Virus record (IMG/VR): IMGVR_UViG_3300046461_000319
Direction: 5' to 3' (one strand)
DNA: 64,000 nt
DNA from: a virus
A model generated the notes under the pieces. It searched no databases and had not been told where the DNA came from. It saw nothing but the letters and a program-made list of their open reading frames with translations. A program made the position numbers and the translations under genes. Below, one piece after another: positions 30,679 through 55,398 of the stretch (position 1 is the stretch's first letter; each line of letters starts with the position of its first letter).

Positions 30679-31035
30679 ATGCGTAAGATTGCCGATGCCG
30701 ATGAACTTGAGATCGAGCTGCGCCGCCTCCTTGCCTACGCGCAGACCGATAAACCATCCCGTTCTCGGCTCGCCAGCGAGCTGGAGTCTCTCCGCGCCCG
30801 TGTTGCCGGCGAGCACACTCGACTCGCGGCTGAGCTGACTGACGAGGGACGCATGGTCGCCAGTATTGAAGGGCCAATAGAACAAGTGAAGAGGGTCGCC
30901 CGCGGACTGATGGGGAGTCGCGGACTCAGCGCTGACACAAAAATTGCCGTGCGGAAATTCGCAACTGTTGTCACCGAACTGGACGATGTCTTCGGAAAAT
31001 TGATCTGGTTGATCACAGCAGACACAGGCAACTGA
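30679..31035 (+). CDS. MRKIA-leader protein 1
   Basis: 43-aa conserved leader plus unrelated helical C-terminus. Confidence 0.75.
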   Translation: MRKIADADELEIELRRLLAYAQTDKPSRSRLASELESLRARVAGEHTRLAAELTDEGRMVASIEGPIEQVKRVARGLMGSRGLSADTKIAVRKFATVVTELDDVFGKLIWLITADTGN

Positions 31036-31043
31036 TACAGACG

Positions 31044-31071
31044 GATAAGCAGGGTCCATTCCCTGCCTATC
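31044..31071. repeat. Palindromic element copy 4
   Basis: gataagcaggg-tccatt-ccctgcctatc between convergent genes. Confidence 0.9.
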
Positions 31072-31098
31072 CGGTTAGCGTCGCGCTGCAGAGCGACG

Positions 31099-31644
31099 TC
31101 AACGGCCGCTTTGAATCTGCTTCGAGATCCACAGTGACACGGCCATCATCGCCTTGGCCATAGGCTCGCGGTCCTTGATAGGGAAGCTTTCGCGTTTCTG
31201 TTTCCCGATCAGGTCGGTCAGGTCAATGGCGTCGAGGTCGGGCAATCCGCCTGCACCCTTGGGCGTATCCTTAGGCTCTGACACATTGAAATAGACATGG
31301 ACTGCCTGCTCGCCTTCGCCCATCTCGATATAGATGTTGCTACTCCACCCAAGGGGGCTCTCTAGATTGACAGTGCTTCCAGAGTTTGTGCGGTGCATGT
31401 CGATGTTGATGTGGTGGTCTCGCCAGCCGCCGACGCCGCTGAATCGTGCTTTCATGAGCTCACCGAGCTCCACCGCCCACTCGACCTTGGCGTCCAGGAG
31501 CGGGCCTCCACTAGAAGCGAGCCGAGTTGAAAGGGTCTTCAGTTCTAGAGCAATGCGTTCTCTAGACGGCCTATTGCTCCCTGTGTAAGCGATGAGCTTC
31601 CGCAGCTCGTCCTGTAGCTCGTGGGTGTTGGCGATCTTACGCAT
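31099..31644 (-). CDS. MRKIA-leader protein 2
   Basis: MRKIANTHELQDELRKLIAY...PSR leader plus alpha/beta cargo. Confidence 0.75.
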   Translation of the reverse strand: MRKIANTHELQDELRKLIAYTGSNRPSRERIALELKTLSTRLASSGGPLLDAKVEWAVELGELMKARFSGVGGWRDHHINIDMHRTNSGSTVNLESPLGWSSNIYIEMGEGEQAVHVYFNVSEPKDTPKGAGGLPDLDAIDLTDLIGKQKRESFPIKDREPMAKAMMAVSLWISKQIQSGR

Positions 31645-31720
31645 CGGTCAGGCTCCCTTGGGTTGAGGCCGGACCTCAGCCGTGCCTTCACAGAGCGCAG
31701 CAGATAAGAGCTTTCTTGGC

Positions 31721-32197
31721 TCAAGGGCCTGTGTAACCCGCTGGGCGGTTACGACTCGCCTCATCAAGGGGCATCCAATGATAGGCCCCGGCGTCGCACG
31801 GAAGCGCCTCAAGATCGCCGAGAGAGGCCCAAGTCGCCCACGCAAATCGACCCGCGGCCCACATCTCTTGACTCCCATCAAAGTCCGGTTCGCGCAGCCG
31901 TAGCATCAGATACCCGGTCGTCATCGTAGGGGGTTGCGCGGGAGGCGGCTCGCACCCGGATTTTTGGGTCGGCCCTCCGCAACCACAGCCAGGTCCCGCG
32001 GCTGTTTGATAGACCAGGCCGGCATTGTCTAGCTTCTCTAGGGCAGCGTTGACTCGCGCTTGCGTTTGGTGGTCGGCCCCGCAATCAAACGGCCCGACGG
32101 GCAGCCTTGGGTCCAGGCAATCTACCCAGAAGCTCCAGTTGCATCCTGGGTAAGCGCATCTAACTTCTACGGACCCGAGCGGCCGAATGTCATCCAT
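31721..32197 (-). CDS. Hypothetical Cys-containing protein
   Basis: ATG 9 nt after GGTGTA on the minus strand (MDDIRPLG...). Confidence 0.6.
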   Translation of the reverse strand: MDDIRPLGSVEVRCAYPGCNWSFWVDCLDPRLPVGPFDCGADHQTQARVNAALEKLDNAGLVYQTAAGPGCGCGGPTQKSGCEPPPAQPPTMTTGYLMLRLREPDFDGSQEMWAAGRFAWATWASLGDLEALPCDAGAYHWMPLDEASRNRPAGYTGP

Positions 32198-32326
32198 GTG
32201 GGTTGTTACACCGCTGGGGGCAACGCTAGCGTCGTTGTTTCTGCGCAGTAAAGCACTTGTGGTTCGAGCTCTGTAACAAGGGCACGGCGCACAAGTCCGA
32301 GCCTCTCGAAAGGATCGCCCAGACCC

Positions 32327-32425
32327 ATGCGCAAGATCGCCAATACGAGTGAACTGGAGCTCGAGCTGCAGCTCAGAACACTTGGAACAGCGGCACAAGG
32401 CACCAGTGCCCTGCTGCGAGGCTGA
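32327..32425 (+). pseudogene. Truncated MRKIA-leader ORF (32 aa)
   Basis: MRKIANTSELELELQLRTLGTAAQGTSALLRG*; full upstream cassette, but similarity is lost after about residue 14. Confidence 0.6.
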
Positions 32426-32470
32426 CAGTGCGCGACTAGCACCGACACCAGACTTGGCGGCGAGCAATAC

Positions 32471-32905
32471 ATGGACGATTTGGCGACGCGCATCACGAGG
32501 CGATTCCTATTCGCGATGGCGCACAATCGGGCGCTTTACAAAGCGGGCCTGGCCAAGCATCTGAAAGGCGGACTACGGGAGTATTACAAGGCTTGCCTAG
32601 GTCGGAAGACTGGGTACATGGCTTCGGTTCCGGCATGGGACACCGAGGTCAAAAAACTGTTGACAGCGTTCTCTAACGCGATGGAGCACGCCATCCAAGG
32701 ATTCAGCGATCGAGGTAAGGCCGTCCAGGAGACAATTGCCGATGTGAAGAGCGCGGATGAGCGAATTCGTCGCAAGGCAGTCAGCGAGTTCATTAAAAAG
32801 GTCCCGGATATCAACAAGTTACGTGTGACGTTGGACGACCAAGACACCGCAGGTTTCTGGACGCGCGTCGATGAGACCATGGCCGCTGAACGTGCTATCC
32901 CATAG
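32471..32905 (+). CDS. Hypothetical protein with RITRRF leader
   Basis: MDDLATRITRRFLFAMA. Confidence 0.65.
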   Translation: MDDLATRITRRFLFAMAHNRALYKAGLAKHLKGGLREYYKACLGRKTGYMASVPAWDTEVKKLLTAFSNAMEHAIQGFSDRGKAVQETIADVKSADERIRRKAVSEFIKKVPDINKLRVTLDDQDTAGFWTRVDETMAAERAIP

Positions 32906-32908
32906 GTC

Positions 32909-33301
32909 ATGAGGGTTGCACTTGCGAAGCCACTGCCAGAAGCACAGAACGCGCTGGAAAACGAACTAGAGTCCAGCCTCGCAAATGCGTTTAGCATGTT
33001 CTGCCTACAGCGCCTGGCTCACAAGAATGGGCTCACGCTGGAGACCCAACTTCATGAGAAGAGCTTCGCGCAGAAGTTGCGGAAGTTTCGGAAGGCTTGC
33101 CGCGGAGCGGGAGAGCAGGTGCCGGGTGCACCTGTAGTGGTGGCGCGGATCATTGCCGTGGTGGCGTCACGCATTCCCAAATCGCGTAGAACGTCTGAGC
33201 GCATCATGGACACTGCGCCCACAGGCAAGCTCCAGCACCACCTCGACGACAACGATGTCGCAGATTTCTGGTCAACCATCTACAAAGCGTTGAGCACCTA
33301 G
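32909..33301 (+). CDS. Hypothetical protein
   Basis: Follows the previous gene by 3 nt. Confidence 0.55.
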   Translation: MRVALAKPLPEAQNALENELESSLANAFSMFCLQRLAHKNGLTLETQLHEKSFAQKLRKFRKACRGAGEQVPGAPVVVARIIAVVASRIPKSRRTSERIMDTAPTGKLQHHLDDNDVADFWSTIYKALST

Positions 33302-33334
33302 CCTGCTCTCAGGTAGGACTTCTCCAGGATTCTA

Positions 33335-33378
33335 GGCTAGGCAGCGCTCGCGAACGAGCCGCCAGTCCCTGCCTATCC
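33335..33378. repeat. Degenerate palindromic element copy 5
   Basis: ggctaggcag...ccctgcctatcc with enlarged loop, between convergent genes. Confidence 0.65.
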
Positions 33379-33394
33379 GGGCACCAGCCGGTGA

Positions 33395-33841: not shown

Positions 33842-33901
33842 CCGTGAGAGACAATCGACAACGGTCGAACTTCAAGGCAAGCACTGAGCTCCGCGCATGC
33901 T

Positions 33902-34114
33902 CTAGGCCGTTTTGCGGACGTGCGGATCGACGATGCTCGCTCGCTTGACTAGATGCATGAGGGCGGTGTTCTTGGTCGAACTATCCTTGCCGTGACGCGC
34001 GAGGTCGCCGAGCTCATCCGCAGTCAAGACCTCCCAGTCGATTGGCTTGCGTCTCGGCGGGACGTTTTCCTCGATAAGGAGCGGCTTGGTCGTACTAGCT
34101 CGAGAATCGTACAT
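33902..34114 (-). CDS. Small hypothetical protein
   Basis: MYDSRAS start resembles the MxYDxR class. Confidence 0.45.
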   Translation of the reverse strand: MYDSRASTTKPLLIEENVPPRRKPIDWEVLTADELGDLARHGKDSSTKNTALMHLVKRASIVDPHVRKTA

Positions 34115-34255
34115 TGTATAACTCTCGATACTTCCAAGACAGGAAGAATGTCAAGGTCTGGTGTAGGCGAGGCTCATGCCTACGGCTACACCAAGTGCGT
34201 CATTCACGAGGCAGTCCATCCCGACCAGCCTCTGCGAGCTTTCTGGGAAATCAGG

Positions 34256-34951
34256 TCACCCGATGCGCTTGATCTTGACGCCACCGCCGCCAATCCCGAG
34301 GTAAACGTGCTGTCCGACGCGGAGCCGACGCAACGCAGCAATGTCTTGGAGGTCCAGCGGTGCCACATCTGGGGCACTGTTGTCTGCAATGAACTGAGCG
34401 AGCGACACCGGCTCATGGTCACCAGTCAAATCGTACAGGTCCAACATGATCTCCCCATCGGAAGTCGCGACCGGTCGACCGGCAGCTGACAGGTTCATCA
34501 TGGTGCCGCCGAACGCCTTGCCACATTCGTCGCAGTAGAACACCTGATCGCGGCCCTTCTTCCCGTTGTCCTCGTGAGGACCGGGATTGCCGCATTTCGG
34601 ACACTTGCTGTTGCGAGTGAATGAGGACTTTGGCGCTGCTTCACCCGGTAGCTCGTGGCCGTTGCCGCCGAGCGCCTTGTTGGCAGCTTCAAGAAGCACT
34701 TCGCGATCGGACTCATACACGTGGTGCTCTCCAGCCATCACTACCAGATCGTACAGAGCACGTGGCACCGCGCCGGACGGACGCCGTGGCAGCTCATCAC
34801 CAGGCTCGACACCCAACGCACGCAGGCCGGCCTCAAGCTGAGGGCTCATACGGTTGCCATACCCTTGATCGTACTTGCCGCGGAGCCACAGGTAGAGATC
34901 CTTGAGTGCCTTCTTGGCGTCCGACGCCTCACGTCGAAAGTCGTAGGTCAT
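34256..34951 (-). CDS. MTYDFR-leader protein with Zn ribbon
   Basis: MTYDFRREAS start; CPKC...CDEC. Confidence 0.65.
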   Translation of the reverse strand: MTYDFRREASDAKKALKDLYLWLRGKYDQGYGNRMSPQLEAGLRALGVEPGDELPRRPSGAVPRALYDLVVMAGEHHVYESDREVLLEAANKALGGNGHELPGEAAPKSSFTRNSKCPKCGNPGPHEDNGKKGRDQVFYCDECGKAFGGTMMNLSAAGRPVATSDGEIMLDLYDLTGDHEPVSLAQFIADNSAPDVAPLDLQDIAALRRLRVGQHVYLGIGGGGVKIKRIG

Positions 34952-35051
34952 GGGTCTGTCTATTTCTACCACAGGATTGTTGGAGTGTCGTTCGTGCACA
35001 CATCGTAACCCGTTTCACATGATGTGTCATAAACGGTTTGCGACGAGCCCG

Positions 35052-35074
35052 TAAGCTGGGTCCATTCCGCCAGC
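35052..35074. repeat. Degenerate palindromic element copy 6
   Basis: taagctgggtccattccgccagct keeps the gggtccattcc core. Confidence 0.5.
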
Positions 35075-37127: not shown

Positions 37128-38324
37128 TCAGGCCCTCAGCTCTACGTCTAGGATGTGCCGGAACAGGACCTTGTCCGCTATGCTCCAGCGATGATTGTTG
37201 AGCTCTTCTCGAAGCATATCGACGATACCGGCGCGTTTCGCCGGGTCCGTGGTCGCCTTGATGCGCTTACGCAACGCGACGAGCATTTTGGCGAACTTGA
37301 ATTCGTGGTCTCCGTCGGCTCGGTCGTAGGCCTCATACATGCGTTCACGTGCACGCGAGGTGGGTTCGGATGAGGGGCTCGATCGCGGCGTGCGTTTCTT
37401 GGTCGCTGGCTTACGCGCCTGCTTCACAATCGCGAGGATTTCTTTCGCGTCGTCCTCGGTCAAATCGTAGTAGTCCGCAAGCTCTCCTGGGAAGCGTGAG
37501 ATCCGATTCAACCCGAACGCATACCACTCGTCGTGTGTGAGCTTTAGACGTATGATCTGGTCGATCTGTTTCTTCGTGGCCGGTGGCTGTTTCGCCTTCG
37601 GCGGCGGTTCTTGATGCTGCTTTGACTTCGCAGCCGATGTGACGGCGGGGCGCAAAATACGCAGGACCTTCTCAGCCTGGTCCTGAGTCCAGCGCCTGAT
37701 ATCCATTTCTCCGCGGTTTGGATATGGGATGATCCGATAGAGCCCGAGGTCGTCCCATGTGGATGGGTTGACGTTGATGTACTGCTCGTACGAACGCAGG
37801 AGTTTCAAGGTTTCGTCGATTTGCGCGGGCGTCGCCAGTGGCTCGTTTGGAGCATCCTCTCGCCACTGTCTGAGAATCCTCAATATTGCGTATCCTTCGG
37901 CATCGGTCAGATGAGAGAAGGCGGATGCGTTGGTCTCAAACGGCACAATCCGATGCAAGCCCAGCTTCCTCCATTCCAAGGCATTCATGGCGAAGTGCCG
38001 GGCGTACGCCACGATCTCGCCTAGCTGGACTGGGGTGATCGGGCCGGCGCGCTTTGGCGTGGGAGGGGGCGGCGGCGGCGGGGGACGGTAATCATATGAC
38101 GGCGCCATCGCGGGTTTGGCCTTGCCCCGCAAGATGTCGTAGGCCTCATTCACATCTTGGATTTGCTTGATCGTCCCGCCCTTGTCAGGGTGCGCCGCTT
38201 GCGCCTTCTGCCGGTAGATCGCCTTGAGATCATCGGGAGACATGTAGCCGCCCGGCGGGACACCCAATACTCGCTTGGCATCGTCAAGGGTCAGGGTCGA
38301 ACGAGCCGCAAAAAGGTCAAACAT
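37128..38324 (-). CDS. DnaJ (J-domain) protein with three internal repeats
   Basis: LGV...YRQKAQAAHPDKGG; 3x T..Q...I...W..[LF]GL.RI...[LW]T...A/G..IL. Confidence 0.75.
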   Translation of the reverse strand: MFDLFAARSTLTLDDAKRVLGVPPGGYMSPDDLKAIYRQKAQAAHPDKGGTIKQIQDVNEAYDILRGKAKPAMAPSYDYRPPPPPPPPTPKRAGPITPVQLGEIVAYARHFAMNALEWRKLGLHRIVPFETNASAFSHLTDAEGYAILRILRQWREDAPNEPLATPAQIDETLKLLRSYEQYINVNPSTWDDLGLYRIIPYPNRGEMDIRRWTQDQAEKVLRILRPAVTSAAKSKQHQEPPPKAKQPPATKKQIDQIIRLKLTHDEWYAFGLNRISRFPGELADYYDLTEDDAKEILAIVKQARKPATKKRTPRSSPSSEPTSRARERMYEAYDRADGDHEFKFAKMLVALRKRIKATTDPAKRAGIVDMLREELNNHRWSIADKVLFRHILDVELRA

Positions 38325-38454
38325 ATCGCAGCGGATGTATAAAGCTTTCTGCCACGTTCCTAACGGGAGCAAGCAGGCAGTAAACCACTTGTGCGGCGAG
38401 CTCTGTGACAGGGCACGGCGCACAAGTCCGGGCCTCTTGAAAGGCACCGACCCC

Positions 38455-38892
38455 ATGCGCAAGATCGCTAACACGTCCGAACTACAATCCGAACTGCGCC
38501 GCCTCCTTGCTTACGCGCAGAGTGAACGGCCCTCACGGCGGCGCATTGCGTCTGCTCTTGAAGATCTCAGTCTCCGGCTCGCTAAGGTCACACCTAGCGA
38601 GACGATTGGTTGGAAGGAAGTCAAAGACGGCGTCTGGCTTGCGCGAGCGAAGTATGCTGACGGCGCCACACACTCGTTTGGCATCTACGAGGACGGCGAC
38701 ACGTTTGGCGTGGAGGTCGACACCCCTGACGGCACCTATCAGCGCAAGAAGCCGTTTGACTCATTTGAGAAGGCGCGAAAGTACGCGGCTAAGTTCATCG
38801 ATAAGGCAAATGGAAACGCTATGCTCGCCGATGTCTTGGACAAGGACTTCAAGCCCGTGCAGGGCCGCCCTCACGTGAGCCCGCTGAACTAA
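38455..38892 (+). CDS. MRKIA-leader protein 3
   Basis: MRKIANTSELQSELRRLLAY...PSR leader plus beta-rich cargo. Confidence 0.78.
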   Translation: MRKIANTSELQSELRRLLAYAQSERPSRRRIASALEDLSLRLAKVTPSETIGWKEVKDGVWLARAKYADGATHSFGIYEDGDTFGVEVDTPDGTYQRKKPFDSFEKARKYAAKFIDKANGNAMLADVLDKDFKPVQGRPHVSPLN

Positions 38893-38938: not shown

Positions 38939-39640
38939 ATGACCTACGACTACCGCGACATACATATCGCCTCTGCCGACCTGCACGGCTTGGTAGCGAA
39001 GTACATGTCGATGTTGGGCCTGGACGTCGCGCCAGTCGTGAAGGTGAAGAATGCCATTGGTGCGAGGAACCTGGGCACCTGCAAGTGGACCCCCGGGCAG
39101 CCGACCAGCACGATAGAGGTTCAGAAGACTGTGACGGGTAACCTGGCCACACTCGAGCGGGTAGTGGCGCATGAGATGGCCCATCACGCGGCCTTTCTAG
39201 ATGCCATCAAGGCCATGCAGGCCATTGTGCTGGAGAGAGGCTCCGAAGCGGGGCCGTACGTGCGCGGGTACCTTCAAGATTTGCGCCGCAGCGATGGGCA
39301 TGGGGAGGAGTGGCTGCGGTACGTGAAGATCATCAACGCGCAGATGGGTAGCGATTTCGTCACCCAGAAGAGTGATGAGACCTACGTCCAGGATGCGGAG
39401 ACCAAGCCCTACTACGTCCTGATTGCCGCTTTGCCCAACGGCAAGTACGGGTATCAGATTGGGGTGAGCTTGTCGGCAAAAATGAAGCAAGTCATCGAAA
39501 GGGCGGGTCAGGCCTACGGAGCCAAGCTCATTAAAACGACGGACGCCAGATGGCAGCACGGGCCTAGGATTGGCAACCCGAGCTGGGCAACATCTGGCGA
39601 TAAGCAAGACGAGATGAAGCGTCTACACGGTGCGGTGTAG
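38939..39640 (+). CDS. SprT-like metallopeptidase with MTYDYR leader
   Basis: LGTCKW, VAHEMAHH, GHGEEW. Confidence 0.75.
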   Translation: MTYDYRDIHIASADLHGLVAKYMSMLGLDVAPVVKVKNAIGARNLGTCKWTPGQPTSTIEVQKTVTGNLATLERVVAHEMAHHAAFLDAIKAMQAIVLERGSEAGPYVRGYLQDLRRSDGHGEEWLRYVKIINAQMGSDFVTQKSDETYVQDAETKPYYVLIAALPNGKYGYQIGVSLSAKMKQVIERAGQAYGAKLIKTTDARWQHGPRIGNPSWATSGDKQDEMKRLHGAV

Positions 39641-39977: not shown

Positions 39978-40086
39978 GCTCCAGATACAAACGAGGCCCC
40001 GGAAACTTCACGGCGTTTACTTTTATCAACCGTCCTCTGTAGCCGCGCCTTCAGGTCCGGCCTCAACGTGAAAGGGTGCCCGACCG

Positions 40087-40485
40087 ATGCGCAAAATCGC
40101 CAACACTGACGAGCTACAGGATGAGTTAAGAGAAGTGCTTGCCTACACGAGGACAGCTTACCCATCGCGCAGCAAGGTCGCTTCTAAGTTGCTGTCCATC
40201 AGCGAAAGGCTCGGGGCCGCGGCGGCGCCAAGTGAGGCGTCGAGGAAGAATAAGGCCAACAAGGCGCTAGACATCCTCTGCAGAAAGTACCACCAGTCCC
40301 TCCCGTTGACTGAGATCAAGGAGATCTTGAGTGCTAACGGCTTCAATGATGAAGCGGTCGACGGTATCTATACTGGTCGTGAGGGCAGATCACACGAGCA
40401 GGTCGGACCGAAGACCTGGATGATGATGACCTGGCACAAGATGGAGGAATCCGGGACCTGGGAAGTGGTCGCCTACTTGAGTTGA
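40087..40485 (+). CDS. MRKIA-leader protein 4
   Basis: MRKIANTDELQDELREVLAY...PSR leader. Confidence 0.78.
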   Translation: MRKIANTDELQDELREVLAYTRTAYPSRSKVASKLLSISERLGAAAAPSEASRKNKANKALDILCRKYHQSLPLTEIKEILSANGFNDEAVDGIYTGREGRSHEQVGPKTWMMMTWHKMEESGTWEVVAYLS

Positions 40486-40502: not shown

Positions 40503-40850
40503 ATGACCTACGACTTCCGCATGGCTGCGTCGCCGCAGCGATATAACGGTAAGTGCAAATGTGGCCGCTTTCACACGGCACTCTTGCAGAAGGTTGACAA
40601 CGTCAAAACCCCCACGGGCTGGCACTACGGCTACCGTAGCGATACGGGTGAGACCCTCACCTCCGAGGGCATCAATAGTCTCGGCCCCGCCGTCACCTGT
40701 GACTGTGGACGCCGCGTGCCTCTTTTGCCGATCAAGGGTCGTTACAACCCCGAGATCAAGTGCACCGCGAAGTGCCTCAGCAGCAAGGGCTTTCAGTGCG
40801 AGTGCAGCTGTGGCGGCAAAAACCATGGCTCCGGTGGGATCAGCCACTGA
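40503..40850 (+). CDS. MTYDFR-leader Cys-rich (Zn-binding) protein
   Basis: MTYDFRMAAS; CKC, CDC, C..KC...CECSCGGKNHG. Confidence 0.65.
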   Translation: MTYDFRMAASPQRYNGKCKCGRFHTALLQKVDNVKTPTGWHYGYRSDTGETLTSEGINSLGPAVTCDCGRRVPLLPIKGRYNPEIKCTAKCLSSKGFQCECSCGGKNHGSGGISH

Positions 40851-40898: not shown

Positions 40899-41453
40899 AT
40901 GCGAAAGATTGCCAGTACCAGTGAGCTGCAACACGAACTGCGCCGCCTACTCGAGTATGCGGCAGGCTTTCGGCCCTCACGCTCAGTGCTCGCCAGCAAG
41001 CTGCTGGGCTTGAGTCAGCGTGTCGCCACGGAGGTGGCGTCGGAGGCGGCGAAGGCAAAGCAGCGCTTTGACAAGAGCAAAAAGACGCTAGCCGCGCTCG
41101 AGGCTCTGGAAAAGAAGCTCCAGAACGGGGACGCGAGCGCCAAGAAGAAATTCAGCAAGGGTTACGATGACCTGTTTGCTTCTGGTGAAGCCGCCGCGAA
41201 GGCCGGCAAGAAGCTGCTGGAGAAGTACGAGGATTCTGCCGATGAGGACCTCATAGAGTGGCTCGACCACTGTTTGCGGCAGTGGGACTCAAACAAGATG
41301 CACCACTACTCCGCGGGCGCGGGGGTGAGCGAGAAAATGGACCAGGCCCGCAACACGTACGCGGCCGGTCAGCAAGTTGACGCCATTGTCAAGGCTTTCG
41401 ACAAACTACTGGAAGACCCGGACACCACGCTAGATGAGAGCTGGCGCAAGTAG
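40899..41453 (+). CDS. MRKIA-leader protein 5
   Basis: MRKIASTSELQHELRRLLEY...PSR leader plus helical cargo. Confidence 0.78.
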   Translation: MRKIASTSELQHELRRLLEYAAGFRPSRSVLASKLLGLSQRVATEVASEAAKAKQRFDKSKKTLAALEALEKKLQNGDASAKKKFSKGYDDLFASGEAAAKAGKKLLEKYEDSADEDLIEWLDHCLRQWDSNKMHHYSAGAGVSEKMDQARNTYAAGQQVDAIVKAFDKLLEDPDTTLDESWRK

Positions 41454-41788: not shown

Positions 41789-42277
41789 ATGAGCTACGAC
41801 CACCGCTACGCTTCCGGAGAACCCAAGCCGATGTTTGCGCCCGGCGATGAGGTCAACGTCATGAGCGACAATCGCGTGTTGTTCACCGGCAAGATCTTCC
41901 GTCGCGTCCAATATGACGACTTCCAAGGGTGTTGGACGTACAAGGTGAAGGATAACAAGGGCGGTAGCGCTCGGACGTTCAACGAGACCAGCATACAGCC
42001 AGCTCAAGCCGCGCCTTCCGTGCCTCCGCCCAGGAATATTCTTGACGATCATGAGGGCATGGCGAAACGGCTCGCGGTGCGACTCGAGCAAGAGATGAAT
42101 AAGATCGTCCGCGGCGCTGGCAAGGTCACCGATGTCCAGACCGAAGGCCCAGGCTCCGGCTGGCTGGTCGTGTTCGACACCGAGTATGCGGCGCTCAAGG
42201 CCTACTACCACTACCGCCACAACAAGCCGAACTTCGGCAAGGCGAACGGCGGCGGCTGGTTCGTGTCTGTGCACTGA
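41789..42277 (+). CDS. MSYDHR-leader protein with SH3/Tudor-like N-terminal domain
   Basis: MSYDHRYAS; FAPGDEV...GKI...YKV. Confidence 0.65.
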   Translation: MSYDHRYASGEPKPMFAPGDEVNVMSDNRVLFTGKIFRRVQYDDFQGCWTYKVKDNKGGSARTFNETSIQPAQAAPSVPPPRNILDDHEGMAKRLAVRLEQEMNKIVRGAGKVTDVQTEGPGSGWLVVFDTEYAALKAYYHYRHNKPNFGKANGGGWFVSVH

Positions 42278-44516: not shown

Positions 44517-47500
44517 CTAGATCGCAACGCTACGCGGAAAAGGCGGCAGGGCAGACCCAGTCGCCTTTTTTTCGTGCAGCTTATCGATGATGGTGCCGTC
44601 CTTGAGGTAGCTGTCCTCCATTGAAGGCGCGAGATACTGAGACTTGAGGGTGGAGGCTTCGTGCCCGAGCTCGTCACTCACGAGCTCGAGCGCCTCCTTG
44701 AACTCTTCTTTGAGCTGCTTCTCGCGCTCCGCCTTGTCCGTGGGAAGCGTGCCCTTGCGCACCTTCTTGAGTGCCTTCTGCATGAGCGAGTTCGCAGCCA
44801 GGCCGCGCAGATCCTTCGCCGTGATATCAAACGGCGCCAGGAACTCGTTGACTTTCTCGGCTGTGACCGTCGCGTCGTCACCTGAGAACAGGCAGCCGTC
44901 CTTGCCCTCCGCCTCTTTGTAGGCGCGCCGAAGGGCCTTCAACACGTAGGGAGTGCTGACGGTCTTCTCGTGCTTGACGCCGCTCTTGCCGACGTATTTG
45001 ATCGTCGCCGACCCGGAGCCGAACGACACGTGCTTCTTCTTCCAACCGGTCACGCCATAGTGCGGATCCCCCGAGTCGTTTCGATTGCCCTTGGCTGACT
45101 CCTCGTTGCCCACACGCTCATGGGTCTCATCGATGAGTGCGATCGCGAGGGCGACGAGCCGAGTCTCGCGATCCTCGGATCCGAGATTCGCCTTGACCTT
45201 GGACCGCAGCTTCTCGACCTTGCCCTTGAACTTCTCGAGACGCTTGGCCTTCTCTCTGTTCCGGGTTTCGACCTGCTTTTCCGAGTAGACGTAGACCTCG
45301 GTTGTCCCCTTGCCGTTGGCTTTGGGCACTTTTTTCTTCTCTTGGTAGCGTGCTGCAACCTTGACGGCCGGCAGCGTGTCGGGAGTCAGTGAGGTGTCAT
45401 CGTCCAGCAACGCGTCAGCCATCGAGTCGTTGTCGTCCCAGCTGAAAGCTTGGCCCTCTTGGGGCAAGTTGAGCTCAACCCCAAAGTCATCGGCCAGGTT
45501 CTGGATATCACCCAGGGTCACGGCAGCCCGTTGATAGCGAGCTGCGACCTTCAGAGCCGAAAGCGTGCTGTTATTGTTTGGTCCCATCAGTTCACCTCGT
45601 ATGCCACCGCTCGCCCGCCGTCGTGAGGCTATCTTGGCGCCACCCAGCTTGCAGATCTTGGCGAAGAACTCTCGTGTCCATGGCCCAACCGCGCGAGGCC
45701 CATGCAACACCCACGCTTTGAACACCTCAGCGAACGCCTCCACGGGGCTCGTGTTGGCATAGTCGGAGATCTCTTCGAGCTGAACTTTCTCTCCGAGATT
45801 GTTCCGTTCGAGGCGAGCCATGTACTCCGTCTCGACAAACGCTACCGAGCTTTCCCCAAATGCGATTAGCGGCGTTTCCGCAAGTACGCGAAACTTTGCA
45901 GCCTGACTTTCGTCACGTGCGTGAGACAAGACAAGCTTCAGTAGGTCCGGTCGGTCGATCGTCTTAGCTAAGCCCTTCGATGCAACCTGCTTAGAAACCA
46001 AGTCAAAGAACGTCTCGACATCCTCCTTGGTGATCTCGACAGATCGGCTACCCATTACCTCTTCCCACTCATTGCGAGCAGTCATCGGCAAGGCCTTGAA
46101 GTAGAAGCGGTGCCCGCACTCATGCGTGAACGTGCCGTGACCCGAGCCGGCACCAACGAGGCCAAGGGGGTACATGATGAGCTCGTCCCGCTCGACCATG
46201 AAGCGGCCCATGGTGTCCCACTCTGACTTCTTGACATCGAAGTCAACGGTAACGGTTAGACCACGCACGGCGGCTGCAAATCCCGCTCGTTTGACCTGAT
46301 CGACGTTAGACTTGAGCCGGCGCAGAAAGGCCTCTAAAGCCACTTCAGCTCCAGTCTCCCCGGAGCGGCCAGTGTTGTGAATCACAACCCCAACGCCGCT
46401 AACCTCAAAGTGCTCAACGGGCTCCCGCCTCTGGACCTTGCCCTCTGGCCTCGTATCCAGGTACTCGGTGATCGCTTTGAACGCCTTGTTGGCGGCGGCC
46501 TGGTAGCGTTTGATTGTGCGATCACGATCGGCCCTGAAACGACCCCAATCAGGGGTCCGACTGGGCCGTATCACCGGAAACAGCATACCGGCGTCCAACT
46601 CGTAACGGACGTCCCAAGCAAGCTTGGCGATCTGCTTCTCCATTGGGGACCACGGGTGATCGCTGGTCTCCTTGGGCAGCAGTTCTTTGTACGCCCACTC
46701 CTCGAAGTTCAGCCGGAAGCTTGTGAACAACTGTTGAGCCTGGTCCCAGCCGGTGCGATCGCCAGCATCTGAGTCAGATGTTGGGGGCTCGATGTCTTTG
46801 TAGATCTTGGTCATGACCTTGAGGTCACGTTTCCAACGATCCACGGCAGACTTGTCTATAGCAGAGTCGAAGCGAGCCAAGACTTGACGTGTGAGTGCCC
46901 GGTTGTCTGACTGATAGGCCAACTTGATCTCTCCCGGCAACACTACTTTCAACCACTCGCGGACTTGCGGATGAACGGCCTGTGGGCCGTACGCGACCAG
47001 GAGGGCAATCGCCTCTGCGAACGCCTCATCTGGGTTTTCGTTGGCGTAGGGGGTGATGGGCGTATGCATCATCCGGAGCTCAGAATCCCCGTGGGTCTCC
47101 AGGTATTTCTCAAGGCCCTCGCGCGTCCAATCATCCGCGTCGACAAATCCCTTGGGCATCCTGACGTAGCCGTCCAAGATGGCCTGTAGCTGCATGCCGA
47201 GCACAGGATCATCGTGGAGCGCCGCATTCAACCATTGGACAAACCCCGGAGTTGTCCGGGGCCACTTGGCGAGCAATTCACTCAGCTTGATCGGCTTCAT
47301 GTCTTGCTTGATGGCTGCGATCCAATACGCGCGAGCCGGATGCGACATCCAATCCATGCCGAAGTAGTGGCCGGTCTCGTGCGCGATCACATAGACGATC
47401 TTCTCCAGATCTTTCATCGCCTTGTGATAGAGCGTGATCTTGCCGTCGCCGTAGTGGCCCGAGGCATAGGTCACCCCGAACATCACATCCATCGGGAGCT

Positions 47501-48089
47501 TGTGCCGCAGCATCTGTGGCAGATAGCGCTTCGCCTTCTGCTGATAGGTCTTCAGCGCATCCGTGAGTGTGTTGAGAAAGGCCCTGTGGGTCGGGTCGGC
47601 CTCGTCATACTCATGAAAAATCATGTGGAAGCCGTCAATGCTGACGTTCTGCTCGGATGGTAGCGCCATCTCTGGCTTCAGATCGCGCTTCTTGTCTTTG
47701 TGGAGCTTGTCGAGCCACGCACCAACATCAGGCAAGCCATTGAGTGCCTTCGTGACCTCGTCCTTCCAACGTCGCTTCACGCGTGGCCACATCTCATAGT
47801 CGGTGCCCAGCGCGGTGATGTGAGTATCGAGCTCGAATAGCGGCCAGGCCTTTTTGCGAAAGACCTCCATTTGCCGGTCCACATCCTTGGCCGTGTACTC
47901 CACCCGGTCCCGCAGGTACCGCATGAGGTCTCGATAGCCGCCCTTTGCTAGATTGGCCTTGTACCAAGCGCCAACACTTTTGCGGAACTTCTCGTAGTCC
48001 GCTTCGCTGTTGACGCGATCGTAGTTGCCAAGGATCTGCTCAACATCTTGAGCAATCTCACGAATCCGAGTCGAATCGAGGGGGCGCAT
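44517..48089 (-). CDS. Polyprotein: zincin (HETGH) + zincin (HECGH) + DNA topoisomerase IB
   Basis: TopIB pentad ERVGN (R), VGKSG (K), DLRG (R), LGHE (H), SQYL (Y); zincins with EAFAE; VLARF/KVAARY at junctions. Confidence 0.85.
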   Translation of the reverse strand: MRPLDSTRIREIAQDVEQILGNYDRVNSEADYEKFRKSVGAWYKANLAKGGYRDLMRYLRDRVEYTAKDVDRQMEVFRKKAWPLFELDTHITALGTDYEMWPRVKRRWKDEVTKALNGLPDVGAWLDKLHKDKKRDLKPEMALPSEQNVSIDGFHMIFHEYDEADPTHRAFLNTLTDALKTYQQKAKRYLPQMLRHKLPMDVMFGVTYASGHYGDGKITLYHKAMKDLEKIVYVIAHETGHYFGMDWMSHPARAYWIAAIKQDMKPIKLSELLAKWPRTTPGFVQWLNAALHDDPVLGMQLQAILDGYVRMPKGFVDADDWTREGLEKYLETHGDSELRMMHTPITPYANENPDEAFAEAIALLVAYGPQAVHPQVREWLKVVLPGEIKLAYQSDNRALTRQVLARFDSAIDKSAVDRWKRDLKVMTKIYKDIEPPTSDSDAGDRTGWDQAQQLFTSFRLNFEEWAYKELLPKETSDHPWSPMEKQIAKLAWDVRYELDAGMLFPVIRPSRTPDWGRFRADRDRTIKRYQAAANKAFKAITEYLDTRPEGKVQRREPVEHFEVSGVGVVIHNTGRSGETGAEVALEAFLRRLKSNVDQVKRAGFAAAVRGLTVTVDFDVKKSEWDTMGRFMVERDELIMYPLGLVGAGSGHGTFTHECGHRFYFKALPMTARNEWEEVMGSRSVEITKEDVETFFDLVSKQVASKGLAKTIDRPDLLKLVLSHARDESQAAKFRVLAETPLIAFGESSVAFVETEYMARLERNNLGEKVQLEEISDYANTSPVEAFAEVFKAWVLHGPRAVGPWTREFFAKICKLGGAKIASRRRASGGIRGELMGPNNNSTLSALKVAARYQRAAVTLGDIQNLADDFGVELNLPQEGQAFSWDDNDSMADALLDDDTSLTPDTLPAVKVAARYQEKKKVPKANGKGTTEVYVYSEKQVETRNREKAKRLEKFKGKVEKLRSKVKANLGSEDRETRLVALAIALIDETHERVGNEESAKGNRNDSGDPHYGVTGWKKKHVSFGSGSATIKYVGKSGVKHEKTVSTPYVLKALRRAYKEAEGKDGCLFSGDDATVTAEKVNEFLAPFDITAKDLRGLAANSLMQKALKKVRKGTLPTDKAEREKQLKEEFKEALELVSDELGHEASTLKSQYLAPSMEDSYLKDGTIIDKLHEKKATGSALPPFPRSVAI
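44538..44572. terminator. Bidirectional intrinsic terminator
   Basis: aaaaggcg...cgccttttttt between convergent genes; overlaps the last codons of the polyprotein. Confidence 0.7.
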
Positions 48090-48096
48090 CGGCATA

Positions 48097-51083: not shown

Positions 51084-51164
51084 GACATTCTCGCTGAGCG
51101 TGCCGTAATAGTTAAGATTGTCGCCTCCGCCACCCGTTTGTTTCGATAGGGTAGTGTTACTGAG

Positions 51165-51620: not shown

Positions 51621-51628
51621 GTCATGAA

Positions 51629-53212
51629 ATGCGTCCTCTGCCAAATTTACCAAACACTCAGATTTCCCACGTAGCGCAATGGGCAAATTTCCATCATACG
51701 ATTGTCAACAGATCGGTTCCGGTCTACCTCACGCCGGGAGCTAATGGGCTCCCCGCAGGGGTTAGTCAGGGGGCCGCGTTAACCCCGGACCTCAACGCGA
51801 TCTTGCGTTACTGCTTCGAGCCACCATCGCAGCGACTATGCGTGATCGGCTCGCGCTGGTCGCTGTCCAACATTCTCGACCCGGGGCGAGTCTTACTCGA
51901 CCCCGGGGCTTGGAATCAGATCACTCGAGTTGAACCGCAGTGGCTTACGTCTGACTACACACGCCAAGCAGCCGACCGCGGTGGTGTCCCTGTGATCGTG
52001 CAAGGCGGGGCAACCATCGGCACCTTGAACCGCGTGCTTGGTGAGGCGAATCTGGCGCTTCAAACATCGGGCGCCAACGACGGCCATCGCATCGCGGGTT
52101 GCATCGCAACCGGAACGCACGGATCGCATCTCAAGGTAGGCGCCGTGCATGACACGGTGTTGGCAGTGCTCCTGGTCACGGGGCCGGGACAAGCGGCGCT
52201 CGTACAGCCGACTTGCCGCCGCTTTACGGCAAAGCTGACGCAGTGGTTCCAGAACGAAACGACGCTGGCTGTCCATGACCTTGCTGACGACCGGCTGTTT
52301 GCTGCCGCTCAAGTCTCGCTCGGTGCCCTTGGCTTCGTGCATTCGGTGATCGTCGAGGCGGTGCCGCTCTACGAGATGTATGGGTTATCGGTGGGACGGC
52401 CGTTATTTGACGCCGATGTATGGCGTGCGATGGAGACGCTCAACACGACGGTGCTCGGCTCGGTCAACGAGCCCGATTTCTTTTCGCTCGTGTTCAGCCC
52501 GTTCGCGGGCGCTGGCGAGAACGGCAGCTTCGCGACCTGGCTGTGTAAGCAGCCTGCTTCACGACCGTACGCCGCGCCAGGTCCGAGGAACGCGCGCATC
52601 GCCTCAGACCTCTCGCAATTGCTTTCGCGGCTGATCCCGTTGTTTGACCACGGTATCGGCGCGGACCTGATCGGCGAGATCATCGCAGCGGAGACGGTTG
52701 GGCAGTATGGCGATGCAGTGATCGTCCCAACCTTCCCGGACAGCATGTTCGGTCCCACCCCACTACCAGAAGGCAACGGCCGAAGCGTCGAGGTCGTAGT
52801 AGACCATCTAGACACACGGCGCGCCGTGCTGACGGTGATCGAGGCGATACAGCAGGAGGGGCACGCCGGCAGGCATCTCTTGGGCGGCGTGGGTGTCCGC
52901 TTTGCGCCGCGTACGAGTGCCCTACTCGGGACGAACATTCACGCGATGAACACGTACATCGAGTTTCCGAGCCTTGGTAGCTCCGACACGACCCTGATCC
53001 ACCGGGCGGTGTGGCGAGCTCTCTGGAACGCCAAGATCCCGTTTACGTGCCACTGGGGCCAGGAATACGGCATGAACCCGGTGAGCGTCCGCAACTATTT
53101 CGGCAGCCGTGTCGGCCACTGGAAGACAGCGCGGCAAGTCTTGCTGCCTTCACTGGCTGCGCGGACGGTGTTCACCAACCCCCTGATCGAGCAGTTGGAC
53201 CTCGATTGCTGA
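51629..53212 (+). CDS. FAD-linked oxidoreductase (PCMH FAD-binding, ALO-like)
   Basis: VIGSRWS, VQGGATI, IAGCIATGTHGS, VSLGALG, C-terminal HWGQ. Confidence 0.85.
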   Translation: MRPLPNLPNTQISHVAQWANFHHTIVNRSVPVYLTPGANGLPAGVSQGAALTPDLNAILRYCFEPPSQRLCVIGSRWSLSNILDPGRVLLDPGAWNQITRVEPQWLTSDYTRQAADRGGVPVIVQGGATIGTLNRVLGEANLALQTSGANDGHRIAGCIATGTHGSHLKVGAVHDTVLAVLLVTGPGQAALVQPTCRRFTAKLTQWFQNETTLAVHDLADDRLFAAAQVSLGALGFVHSVIVEAVPLYEMYGLSVGRPLFDADVWRAMETLNTTVLGSVNEPDFFSLVFSPFAGAGENGSFATWLCKQPASRPYAAPGPRNARIASDLSQLLSRLIPLFDHGIGADLIGEIIAAETVGQYGDAVIVPTFPDSMFGPTPLPEGNGRSVEVVVDHLDTRRAVLTVIEAIQQEGHAGRHLLGGVGVRFAPRTSALLGTNIHAMNTYIEFPSLGSSDTTLIHRAVWRALWNAKIPFTCHWGQEYGMNPVSVRNYFGSRVGHWKTARQVLLPSLAARTVFTNPLIEQLDLDC

Positions 53213-53214
53213 GC

Positions 53215-53499
53215 TCAACAGCCTTCCCAATCCGGGTTCACTTCCAACTCACAGATTCCGCGGGCGTCGCGGTAGTGGTCACTGGTGCCGAGTCGCTTCT
53301 CGTCGGCGATGCGGAACACGCGGTATTCGGCGGCATTGAAGGTGCCATGGCCGCTCGACATCGAGTGTTTTTCGATGCGAAATAGGCCGCACTTGCTCGT
53401 GTAGACCGGCTCATCGTCAAACACGATTGTCTTACCGGTAACCTTGCTTACGATCTCGCGGTACGTCGGGCGGCCAAACTTTACTGTGAAAGTCGTCAT
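53215..53499 (-). CDS. Small hypothetical protein
   Basis: Downstream of the class B motif at 53516-53540. Confidence 0.6.
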   Translation of the reverse strand: MTTFTVKFGRPTYREIVSKVTGKTIVFDDEPVYTSKCGLFRIEKHSMSSGHGTFNAAEYRVFRIADEKRLGTSDHYRDARGICELEVNPDWEGC

Positions 53500-53552
53500 G
53501 GCTTGTGAATGAGATACAAACCAGCGGCAACAAACTTCACGGGCGCCCAAAC

Positions 53553-53578
53553 AAAAATGCCCGCCGGGAAGGGCGGGC
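53553..53578 (-). terminator. Intrinsic terminator
   Basis: gcccgcc-gggaa-gggcgggc with A-run (U-tract on minus strand); near-copy at 54206-54234. Confidence 0.7.
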
Positions 53579-53597
53579 TTGAAGGGCAGTGTGGGGG

Positions 53598-53888
53598 TTA
53601 CTTCCCGCGGCCGGGCTTCTTCATGATCCGGTCCGAGCCGGACCGCATGATTCTGCTAAACGTCGCCGCGTAGGAGTAGTTGCCTGGGAGCTTCTCCCAG
53701 CAGAGCATGACCGTCTCACACTGCGCGGCGCTCAACTTCGGGCCGGCCATCAGGGCGAGCATCATGTTGCCGCCCTTGTCCCGCTCGTTCCAGAGCTGCT
53801 TGGCGGCAGCCGCCGTGATGGGCTCGGGCGCGATGCCCTTGTGTCTCGGGTGTCCGCACAGGCAGGGTAGTTGGCTGGTGTTGGTCAT
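53598..53888 (-). CDS. Small hypothetical protein
   Basis: gagaggg SD; CLCGH motif. Confidence 0.55.
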   Translation of the reverse strand: MTNTSQLPCLCGHPRHKGIAPEPITAAAAKQLWNERDKGGNMMLALMAGPKLSAAQCETVMLCWEKLPGNYSYAATFSRIMRSGSDRIMKKPGRGK

Positions 53889-53924
53889 GTTACGGGGTCC
53901 CTCTCTTGAATCGTTGGCAGGTAA

Positions 53925-54140
53925 TCAGAACTCGTAGGGGTCGACCACGGGCTCGTAGGTCATCTCATCGGGCTCGCACTCATCACCCTCGTATTCGCAG
54001 TCATCCACCTCGAACTCGTCATCCTCGGGGCACTCGCCGTCTGCCTCCTCGATTGGCTCAAGTTCAGAGGGCTCTTGGTCGTCGAACTCGGTGTCGTACA
54101 TGTCGTAACCAAAGTCCGATTCGTACTCTTCGTGGTCCAT
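53925..54140 (-). CDS. Extremely acidic small protein (71 aa)
   Basis: 34 D/E and no K/R by hand count; own class B promoter. Confidence 0.6.
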   Translation of the reverse strand: MDHEEYESDFGYDMYDTEFDDQEPSELEPIEEADGECPEDDEFEVDDCEYEGDECEPDEMTYEPVVDPYEF

Positions 54141-54205
54141 CGCTTCTACCTTTCGACCGGGGCACCCTAGATACAATCGAGTCATGGGATTCTTCACGCT
54201 GCCTC

Positions 54206-54234
54206 AAAAAAAGAGCCCACCGGGAAGGGCGGGC
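54206..54234 (-). terminator. Intrinsic terminator
   Basis: aaaaaaa-gagcccacc-gggaa-gggcgggc. Confidence 0.7.
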
Positions 54235-54240
54235 CTTCGT

Positions 54241-54495
54241 TCAGAACGAGCCGATGTCAGCCAAGCGGCACTTGTGTTGCACCTTGCCGCGCTTGCCCTT
54301 CGTGTAGACGACGCCGCCGAGTGCCTCGATGTGTACAACCTTGATTGAGTCTCCCGTTCGCACGTGCTTCGCCTCGAAACCGAAGCCGCCGCGTTGGAAC
54401 CACTCCAGCAGGTCACAGCGGGCGCTGTCATAGGCTTCCCAATCTTTGCAACCGTGCCACTTCAACATCGCTTCAAAACAGGCTTTAGGGTCCAT
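54241..54495 (-). CDS. Small hypothetical protein
   Basis: gaggag SD and class B motif upstream. Confidence 0.6.
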   Translation of the reverse strand: MDPKACFEAMLKWHGCKDWEAYDSARCDLLEWFQRGGFGFEAKHVRTGDSIKVVHIEALGGVVYTKGKRGKVQHKCRLADIGSF

Positions 54496-54549
54496 CGTGC
54501 TCTCCTCTTCGTTTCGGGCAGTGTCGATACAATCGAGCCAGGCAGTTCT

Positions 54550-54846
54550 TCACGCCGCCTTGAACTTTGCGTGTTGCGCTTCCGAGTCAACCTCGTGATT
54601 GTGGAGAGCTAGCGCAGCCCGACGGCCGCGAACCTCAATCTTTGCAAGGGCTTCTTTGGTTGCGCCAGAGCGGCGGGCAAGGCGCCATTCTTGCCGGAGG
54701 TTGTTGAGCGCCTCGATCAGCTCCAACCGGATCCCAGGTAGGTCAAGCGCGGTGCCCCAGCAGCGGAAGCACACGCCGCCCTTGATGTGAGCGTAGCACT
54801 TGAGTTCGCCTTTCGCGGCGCAGCGGGGGCATGCATGGGTCGGCAT
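54550..54846 (-). CDS. Small Zn-finger protein
   Basis: CPRC...CFRC.G; ATG 9 nt after the class B motif. Confidence 0.6.
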   Translation of the reverse strand: MPTHACPRCAAKGELKCYAHIKGGVCFRCWGTALDLPGIRLELIEALNNLRQEWRLARRSGATKEALAKIEVRGRRAALALHNHEVDSEAQHAKFKAA

Positions 54847-54927
54847 GTCCTGAAGACAATTCAGAGGTCTGAATCTTCAAGGCCAGCGGCTGCGCCCGAC
54901 TGTTCTTATGTGTGGGCTTTTAGCGAC

Positions 54928-55398
54928 ATGCACAGGATCGCTAGTCCATCTCAACTTCAAGCAGAGCTTCGCGGCATGCTCCGCTATCTCGGGGCCGGGA
55001 GGCCATCCAGGGCACACATCGCCGCAGCTCTGCGGGGGCTCAGTGCTCGCTTGCACGAGGGGGCGCCGCGCAGCAATGAAGCGGAGATTGACCAGGCTGT
55101 TAGCACCGTGCTTTCGCGTATCTATCAGCTCATGACGTCGTTCAACCACACAATGAACGCGTCCACCTCTTGCTCGCAGGCGATCGACATCGCTTTTGAG
55201 AACGTCAAGATTCGCCCGGGGATCCGCAAAACGGTCATCAAACAAGTGTACCGAACCCTGAAATCGGAGTTGGCACTAGAGAAGGCCATGTCTCCGCGGG
55301 AGTGGGCAGAGAACTACACCGACCACGATGCCAGTGAAGAAGAGCTAGCTGAGGTGATCAAGCACATCGACTCATATCGAGACCTGAGCAAAATGTGA
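54928..55398 (+). CDS. MRKIA-leader protein 6 (divergent)
   Basis: MHRIASPSQLQAELRGMLRY...PSRAHIAAALRGLSARL aligns gap-free with the family. Confidence 0.7.
   Translation: MHRIASPSQLQAELRGMLRYLGAGRPSRAHIAAALRGLSARLHEGAPRSNEAEIDQAVSTVLSRIYQLMTSFNHTMNASTSCSQAIDIAFENVKIRPGIRKTVIKQVYRTLKSELALEKAMSPREWAENYTDHDASEEELAEVIKHIDSYRDLSKM

Follow-up and report, generated by a model that had tools for sequence, protein, structure and literature searches.

What does a 43-residue block do when it stands at the start of six proteins that are otherwise unrelated? The question is raised by a 64,000-nucleotide stretch of viral DNA, IMG/VR record IMGVR_UViG_3300046461_000319 (the window, by which we mean this whole stretch). 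An earlier reading made from the letters alone (the sequence-only reading) had pointed to six open reading frames (ORFs) that open with a shared 'MRKIA' leader and continue into dissimilar C-terminal parts, here called cargos, and had taken the leader for a plug-and-play tag that loads effectors into the phage head. We find that the leader is a large, sharply bounded and unannotated domain family. It probably serves as a shared protein-docking module, and neither as a nucleic-acid binder nor as a product of simple paralogy.

A conserved leader on unrelated cargos

The six ORFs, at 30679(+), 31644(-), 38455(+), 40087(+), 40899(+) and 54928(+), were recovered with the coordinates and strands given in the sequence-only reading. 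Aligned with MAFFT, their residues 1–45 form a gap-free block with a mean column identity of 69%, and the residues described as invariant are exactly so (M1, I4, A5, L10, E13, L14, R15, Y20, P26, S27, R28, A32, L35 and R41). The C-terminal parts had been called unrelated, and indeed BLASTP detects nothing shared among the six at E < 1e-4. A hidden Markov model (HMM) built from the six copies and run against the six-frame translation of the window returned each copy with an E value between 1e-24 and 1e-26; their similarity is far beyond chance. The next best match is a seventh, degenerate leader at 32328, which keeps MRKIANTSELELEL, then diverges and reaches a stop after 32 codons.

The leader is conserved as protein. 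Among the six paralogs, invariant leader residues are written with two to five different codons: Ser27 uses four kinds and Arg28 five, the latter drawn from both the CGN and the AGR family. The mean nucleotide identity of the leader is only 55%. Because the codons vary and the nucleotide identity is this low, the conservation reflects purifying selection on the leader peptide and not the persistence of a DNA repeat.

The HMM search that the sequence-only reading had suggested was carried out by scoring the leader profile against 1.84 billion representative proteins. It returned 614 protein clusters at E ≤ 1e-3, 235 of them at E ≤ 1e-10, with proteins of 45–280 residues. The best 150 relatives were used for position conservation and for tail and library statistics. 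The leader begins at residue 1 in 143 of these, and at least one of the exceptions, P0001, is a gene of the window itself for which an upstream TTG was taken as the start. Pro26-Ser27-Arg28 is invariant across the 150, and M1, K3, I4, A5, L10, E13, L14, Y20, A32, L35, L38 and R41 are each conserved in more than 90%. As had been claimed, similarity ends abruptly near residue 43: position 43 still carries 2.5 bits of information, whereas position 44 has 1.3 bits and the positions from 45 on have 0.4 bits. The boundary reads R-[VL]-A-[GA], with R41 (89%), Val (62%) or Leu (27%) at position 42, A43 (70%) and Gly (28%) or Ala (26%) at position 44, so that small residues are favoured at positions 43 and 44. 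The net charge of the leader is about +2. The first ten residues that follow it are enriched in Gly, Ala, Ser, Thr and Pro.

Beyond this linker, BLAST sorts 153 tails into 116 components that are unrelated to one another. The tails have a median length of 91 residues and mixed isoelectric points, cysteine is rare in them, and no transmembrane-like segment was found in any of the 153. The cargos are small, soluble accessory proteins. Pfam gave isolated weak matches only in the 150 members, to PIN_9 (8e-4) and Death (9e-4).

To describe the fold, we turned to an AlphaFold2 model of the 38455 protein, built with the 150-row alignment. Residues 1–6 are extended and are followed by helices at residues 7–21 and 28–42, with a predicted local distance difference test (pLDDT) score of about 95; residues 45–50 form a disordered linker (pLDDT < 50), after which the cargo folds into a beta-rich domain of its own. 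The leader modelled alone reached a pLDDT of 92.5. It is thus predicted to be a self-folding antiparallel helical hairpin, closed by the Pro-Ser-Arg turn, on which the extended M-x-K-I-A segment packs. Compared with representative PDB chains by VIA-align in its wide mode, the leader matched generic helical hairpins (best Z 5.5), and the analogues at Z of about 5 include the dimerisation or docking hairpins of GLD-1 and CENP-B, which are likewise generic and not specific. The ESM Atlas returned the N-terminal hairpin of DnaB and one viral cluster part-labelled as the phi29 Scaffolding_pro family (TM score 0.59), again without specificity. Foldseek with the full model found nothing at E ≤ 1e-3 in PDB and BFVD, and a feature-based protein atlas search gave no usable match. 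A dimer prediction from two copies of residues 1–46 with their own alignment scored 0.41 against a mark of 0.42, which speaks neither for nor against binding.

The sequence-only reading had not recognized the leader as a named domain, and it has none that we could find: there is nothing significant in Pfam or PHROGs, whether searched with the six proteins, the 150 relatives or 28 leader-only sequences, nor in a PDB profile search. A match to a stand-alone DNA-binding or toxin–antitoxin domain, which would have told against a targeting role, was likewise not found; the hints for the leader (DUF1843, EAD11 and TilS) are all below threshold. The domain was not found described in the literature searched.

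Cassettes, clade and neighbouring elements

The leader is genetically portable: it occurs on more than 100 cargo families, its cargos are met with other tags or bare, and the cassettes are shuffled. The term plug-and-play is apt in this respect. One cargo (P0026) is 53% identical to a protein of contig L014 that begins MAYSYDRR... in place of the leader. P0127 shares 49% identity in its C-terminal domain with the window gene at 41789, which begins MSYDHR..., and the untagged window gene 39684(-) is 46% identical to the cargo of P0121. The near relative L004 has its orthologue of the 31099(-) gene (80% identity) directly upstream of the 40899 orthologue (91%), whereas the same slot in the window holds a different gene. 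Gene 32471, just after the degenerate leader at 32328, has a different N-terminal motif. Because the upstream element described below is retained and a differently tagged gene follows, this leader looks like a replaced cassette, and it is likely a fossil of such a replacement.

All leader contigs with usable flanks (L001, L002, L005, L007, L008 and L014–L017; 43–64% GC) share other genes with the IMG/VR contig G001, which makes the leader a hallmark of a single clade of huge phages. G001 is 528,957 bp long, has 64% GC, is complete according to CheckV and lacks rpoB. Its DNA polymerase PolA is 58% identical to that of the window, and about 30 further genes are held in common. Members of the leader clusters lie on contigs of 198,669 and 433,843 bp. 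As far as can be tested, the leader is restricted to one clade of uncultured phages of 0.2–0.5 Mb. No match came from tblastn of a leader protein against 50,697 phage records or from a megablast search of phages with 5.7 kb of the window, and the window PolA is only about 27% identical to that of the nearest sequenced phage, none of which is close. In GTDB species genomes, scanned with a single narrow peptide pattern, no copy turned up; this speaks only weakly for absence. The window has six leader copies and the degenerate one, five are present on L007 (6.6 kb) and six on L013 (17.7 kb). The leader-bearing stretch of the window, at about 29–57 kb, is poorly conserved with G001 and is flanked by conserved blocks.

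About 70 nt of DNA upstream of the ATG are conserved in five of the seven window copies, those at 40899 and 54928 being the exceptions. This shared element consists of a CTTATC box, GGCNCGGCG..GGTCCGGCC and a Shine–Dalgarno (SD) sequence within a GGUC...GACC stem. Many relatives carry it as well; it is missing from most of L011 and L013. We rejected the upstream hairpin as a conserved RNA structure, given that it is strong in only two of the seven copies. At their 3' side, several cassettes are bracketed by conserved palindromes. The palindrome GATAAGCAGGG-TCCATT-CCCTGCCTATC occurs in the window at 29085–29127, 29662–29707, 30251–30296, 31031–31076, 33362–33389 and 35052–35068, where it repeats between small genes with a spacing of about 590–780 bp. 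A second repeated element (AGACAATCGACA..AACTTCAAG) lies at 33849, 35093, 37027 and 41455. Both could be terminators or sites of cassette recombination. The positions of leaders, cargos and associated elements are collected in Table 1.

Table 1. Leader copies, their cargos and associated elements in the window.
Feature	Coordinates	Strand	Remarks
MRKIA leader copy 1	30679..30807	+	43 codons
Copy 1 linker and cargo	30808..31035	+	75 aa, helical; homologues P0003, P0080
MRKIA leader copy 2	31516..31644	-	
Copy 2 linker and cargo	31099..31515	-	138 aa; 80%-identical L004 orthologue in other slot
Degenerate seventh leader	32328..32426	+	first 14 residues retained; stop after 32 codons
MRKIA leader copy 3	38455..38583	+	
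Copy 3 linker and cargo	38584..38892	+	disordered linker (residues 45–50), beta-rich cargo; AlphaFold2 pLDDT 80.7
MRKIA leader copy 4	40087..40215	+	
Copy 4 linker and cargo	40216..40485	+	89 aa
MRKIA leader copy 5	40899..41027	+	
Copy 5 linker and cargo	41028..41453	+	141 aa, helical, Lys/Glu-rich
MRKIA leader copy 6	54928..55056	+	most divergent (MHRIA...)
Copy 6 linker and cargo	55057..55398	+	113 aa
Upstream element, copy 1	30601..30678	+	CTTATC box, GGCACGGCG..GGTCCGGCC, SD AAAGG, GACCAATG
Upstream element, copy 2	31645..31716	-	
Upstream element, degenerate copy	32245..32327	+	strong imperfect hairpin
Upstream element, copy 3	38377..38454	+	strongest hairpin, -38 kcal/mol, z = -2.4
Upstream element, copy 4	40020..40086	+	weaker
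Palindrome between convergent copies 1 and 2	31044..31071		GATAAGCAGGG..CCCTGCCTATC; also at 29085, 29675, 30264, 33362 and 35052

Two further N-terminal motifs were noticed. One is a short tag, M-[TSA]-Y-(S-Y)-D-x-R..A-[ST], which is carried by unrelated proteins and conserved across the clade. In the window it begins the genes 33902–34114(-), 34256–34951(-), 38939–39640(+), 40503–40850(+) and 41789–42277(+); elsewhere it is found at L008:397, at L014:14324–14623(-) and in G001 at 89775(-), 125262(+) and 434542(+). Genes with the short tag often lie directly downstream of an MRKIA gene, and on homologous cargos the short tag replaces the MRKIA leader. The other motif, h-x-x-[RK]-[VIL]-x-x-R-[YF], occurs five times against 0.9 expected. 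It is seen at the N-termini of window genes 16340, 18807, 32471 and 35684, at G001 54131, 163024 and 299120 (in the form ...SRVAHR[YF], once in tandem) and at domain junctions of the window protein encoded at 44520–48095(-), around residues 417, 862 and 925. It may mark a site of processing. Its R-V-A core is identical to the residues that close the conserved part of the MRKIA leader; the likeness between the leader end and ...RVAxR[YF] is only partial, and we did not use it. A different arrangement is found in G001 at 394125–396016(-), where a small gene with a degenerate leader (MPLKIASKNF...AKPNK...) carries the cargo QANSREEVMKGFKESNP..., and the same cargo recurs inside the upstream 525-residue ORF, right after the half-leader LRELAASVETRTNPSRIEIAKSL. 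A leader–cargo unit can therefore be embedded in a larger protein.

Among the window genes are those for PolA, DnaB-like and SNF2 helicases, RNase HII, a dNMP kinase, Dam, an Acb1-like protein, ClpX and two J-domain proteins, and many window proteins have PHROG matches. The 1192-residue protein encoded at 44520–48095(-) combines two HExxH zincin-like modules (residues 248 and 667) with a C-terminal topoisomerase IB of eukaryotic type, the latter part being conserved in G001; it is similar to the polyvalent proteins that phages inject (PMC7824862). The J-domain (DnaJ) proteins are encoded at 37131–38423(-) and 57769–58143(+). The first of these has a weak GemA-like region, and its gene is divergent from the 38455 leader gene and overlaps the upstream element of the latter. 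On the phage-clade contig L016 (ENA k119_1382821), which bears P0088, the region 4122–18394 is an island rich in defence and toxin–antitoxin genes, with a ParE-like toxin, two IS1595-type transposase ORFs, an AbiEi/AbiEii pair, a DEAD helicase with DUF4325, and Thg1.

Candidate partners of the leader

Contact between the leader and one conserved partner protein is suggested by two observations: surface polar residues stay nearly invariant in genomes that differ widely, and a short unrelated tag can stand in for the leader on the same cargo. As an address or docking tag, the leader would direct all cargos to a single conserved partner encoded by the clade, and the flexible Gly/Ala/Ser/Thr/Pro-rich linker would join it to interchangeable small soluble accessory domains. 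By analogy, the partner that we tentatively favour, at somewhat below an even chance, is the core or scaffold of the assembling prohead. The cargos would then be packaged in the head and injected together with the DNA, in the manner of T4 internal proteins, and the tag might be clipped in the linker, after R41-[VL]42-A43, by a ClpP-family head protease of the clade. We count in support of a capsid destination that G001 has a 452-residue ORF with a ClpP-family domain (143590–144006) near a block with a tail-like gene, that small residues occupy positions 43 and 44, and that the leader has a charge of about +2.

A number of observations weigh against the prohead as partner. No virion genes were found in the window, and no linkage of leader genes to head genes was found; the leader genes sit among accessory or early-looking genes and have their own promoter-like element. 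The complete relative G001 has a single clean leader copy in its entire genome. The cargo of one member, on L008, is phrog_37844, and the untagged homologue of this family in the cultured Paraglaciecola phage GD1 (gp122) lies amid gyrase, methylase and anti-sigma genes. A conserved cleavage motif of the Glu type is missing from positions 40–50, and the sequence is barely conserved from position 44 on. A conserved, folded leader of 43 residues also exceeds the needs of known capsid-targeting peptides. Moreover, its strictly N-terminal position could have a genetic cause, with the promoter, the 5' untranslated region (UTR) and the leader serving as a 5' recombination arm. A search of G001 for Peptidase_S77, the T4 gp21 type of protease, gave no match, but its controls were equally silent and the search was without power.

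The leader could instead be a handle for oligomerisation or hub docking that has no role in the virion. In this case, leaders would form four-helix bundles with themselves or with one another, or would dock on a non-structural hub, to give multivalent binders or mixed paralog complexes. The AlphaFold2 models suggest that a two-helix hairpin core of 43 residues is too small for stability alone, the best structural analogues at Z of about 5 are the dimerisation domains named above and the DnaB hairpin, and several paralogs are present per genome, in arrays of four to seven. Cargo homologues elsewhere are ordinary cytoplasmic early genes. DUF1843 provides an analogy, being a helical domain of about 50 residues with a flexible linker and operon paralogs for which self-assembly was proposed (PMC10994174), and to this the sub-threshold sequence hint may be added; the DUF1843 protein is, however, monomeric in vitro (PMC10994174). 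The structural matches are generic. An oligomerisation handle also leaves unexplained why the surface polar residues K3, E13, Y20, R28 and R41 are near-invariant across genomes of 43–64% GC, and why a 10-residue M-x-Y-D-x-R tag replaces the leader on the same cargo. We consider it nearly as likely as the prohead reading. Alternatively, the address might be another phage-built destination, such as a nucleus-like or membrane-bound compartment in place of the capsid. All features of a targeting tag apply equally here, and the huge genomes (199–529 kb) and the several interchangeable tag classes in the clade agree with it. In contrast, import into the phage nucleus is not known to use a linear N-terminal signal, and a compartment gene was not identified in this analysis. 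We give such a destination a slim chance.

A recognition tag for ClpX, acting with host ClpP or with a ClpP-like protease of the phage, would make the leader a timing degron for early effectors or an adaptor that delivers host targets. The window indeed encodes a full-length ClpX at 17520–18773(+), which has the zinc-binding domain, the GYVG pore loop and an LGF at the position of the ClpP-docking loop; it matches a solved ClpX with E = 4e-102 and is 54% identical to the ClpX of G001 (54558–55898). The ClpP-family ORF of G001 and the position of the leader at the extreme N-terminus are in line with this idea, and Iyer et al. suggest that ClpX and ClpA of jumbo phages act as translocases or in virion assembly (PMC7824862). 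However, a direct link was not found. The known N-terminal signals for ClpX are short and unstructured, whereas the leader is predicted to be a stable folded domain, and both genes that flank the window clpX carry the ...R-V-x-x-R-[YF] motif, not MRKIA. A ClpX tag is improbable.

An autoregulator that binds nucleic acid is still harder to defend. Here a ribbon–helix–helix (RHH)-like or Arg-rich leader would bind the upstream dyad or the hairpin of the 5' UTR and limit its own expression, as antitoxins do. The order of a short strand, a helix, a Ser-capped turn and a second helix within about 45 residues does resemble RHH proteins, and an imperfect dyad and 5' UTR accompany five of the seven copies. 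Yet Pfam gave no RHH or other DNA-binding match in 150 full-length (E ≤ 1e-3) or 28 leader-only sequences (E ≤ 10). The M-x-K-I-A-x segment contains one hydrophobic residue (I4) and variable polar residues at positions 2 and 6, and so lacks the alternating pattern of an RHH strand. The net charge is low. The hairpin is antiparallel, and no RHH chain is among the top 50 of VIA-align, though a family not listed there is not thereby excluded. Because the sequence models, the strand pattern and the charge are against it and the dyad is missing from many copies (40899, 54928, and most of L011 and L013), the RHH idea fails; the hairpin, moreover, is strong in only two copies, and adjacent toxin-like partner genes were not found. 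Least credible of all is an ordinary paralog family without modularity, whose C-termini diverged beyond recognition. Duplication could give multiple local copies, but the cargo folds differ (helical versus beta-rich), the cargos have homologues of 46–53% identity with another N-terminus or none, and conservation falls stepwise and not gradually.

Returning to the leader as a docking tag, it is conceivable, though we would not expect it, that it belongs to an addressing code. At least three interchangeable N-terminal tags (the MRKIA hairpin, the tag of about 10 residues M-x-Y-D-x-R..A-[ST], and ...R-V-A-x-R-[YF]) would direct small accessory proteins of more than 100 families to a shared destination, which would be the capsid, with co-injection, or a phage-built compartment. 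A clade-specific protease would remove the tags, and the promoter–UTR–tag unit and the 3' palindromes would serve as recombination arms by which new cargo is captured.

If the leader is indeed an address label, the effector repertoire of a whole clade of 0.2–0.5 Mb phages would be defined in one step. Any ORF starting with MxKIA…PSR would be a candidate for a delivered or co-assembled accessory protein, and the 614 clusters, nearly all without an assigned function, would form a natural catalogue of probable host-takeover and anti-defence domains. The T4 principle of capsid targeting, so far that of a short peptide, would be extended to a domain that is folded and portable, and this would interest those who wish to load large capsids with foreign proteins. 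Even as a mere oligomerisation handle, the leader merits a Pfam entry and is a clear case of cassette-style gene shuffling in huge phages.

Comparison with known systems

The coat-binding hairpins of scaffold proteins, namely the C-terminus of P22 gp8 and phi29 gp7, are small and amphipathic helix-turn-helix domains, have conserved basic residues, dock on the assembling capsid and can take fused cargo into it. Unlike the N-terminal leader, they are the C-terminal part of a single scaffold protein. Scaffold families gave one weak PHROG match (E = 0.11) and none in the leader-only PHROG scans, with no significant match in sequence or structure.

The internal proteins of T-even phages are diverse anti-defence proteins that have only a capsid-targeting sequence (CTS) in common (PMC3012670). 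Like the leader, the T4 CTS, found on IPI, IPII, IPIII and Alt, is an N-terminal tag on unrelated, fast-evolving small accessory proteins, is portable to foreign cargo, and belongs to genes that lie outside the head-gene cluster (PMC3012670, PMC5694885). The CTS is a linear peptide of 10–20 residues, whereas the MRKIA leader is predicted to be a folded hairpin of 43 residues with two confident helices. The CTS ends at a gp21 site after Glu (L/I-x-E) and the leader at R-[VL]-A-[GA], and there is no detectable homology between the two. Ejection proteins of giant phages have long propeptides whose conserved N-termini are thought to act in capsid targeting (PMC5694885). The propeptides of phiKZ and SPN3US resemble the leader in that they occur in giant phages, are longer than those of T4, retain conserved N-termini between diverged paralogs and have been proposed to target the prohead (PMC5694885). 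In contrast to the leader, with its unrelated cargos, these propeptides have 80–130 residues, are cut at S/A/G-x-E and precede homologous mature parts.

DUF1843 (PF08898) shares with the leader the form of a helical mini-domain of about 50 residues with a long flexible linker and adjacent repeated paralogs (PMC10994174), and the conserved leader positions L..AYA...SR..IA..L..L line up with it. It is a C-terminal domain of bacteria (Burkholderia, Chromobacterium), whereas the leader is N-terminal and found in phages. The Pfam model matched one of the 28 leaders below threshold, with 13.6 bits (E = 0.11) where the cut-off is 23.3, and did not match the leader copy of G001; the PDB entry 8t0b, at E = 0.29, is likewise below threshold.

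Finally, the adaptors of polymorphic conflict systems (the LXG and WXG100 hairpins, MuF and the EADs) are, like the leader, N-terminal helical modules that are combined with many C-terminal cassettes (PMC3482391, PMC8195603). The EAD11 hint is weak (E = 0.031 in one of the 28 leader-only sequences). Unlike in these systems, no toxin, immunity or secretion genes were found in leader contexts, the cargos are tiny and have no known toxin domains, and the carriers are lytic-looking huge phages. Sequence comparison reveals no detectable homology of the leader family to the T4 CTS, giant-phage propeptides or polymorphic toxins, and the theme that it follows, an N-terminal module on polymorphic cargo, is a known one.

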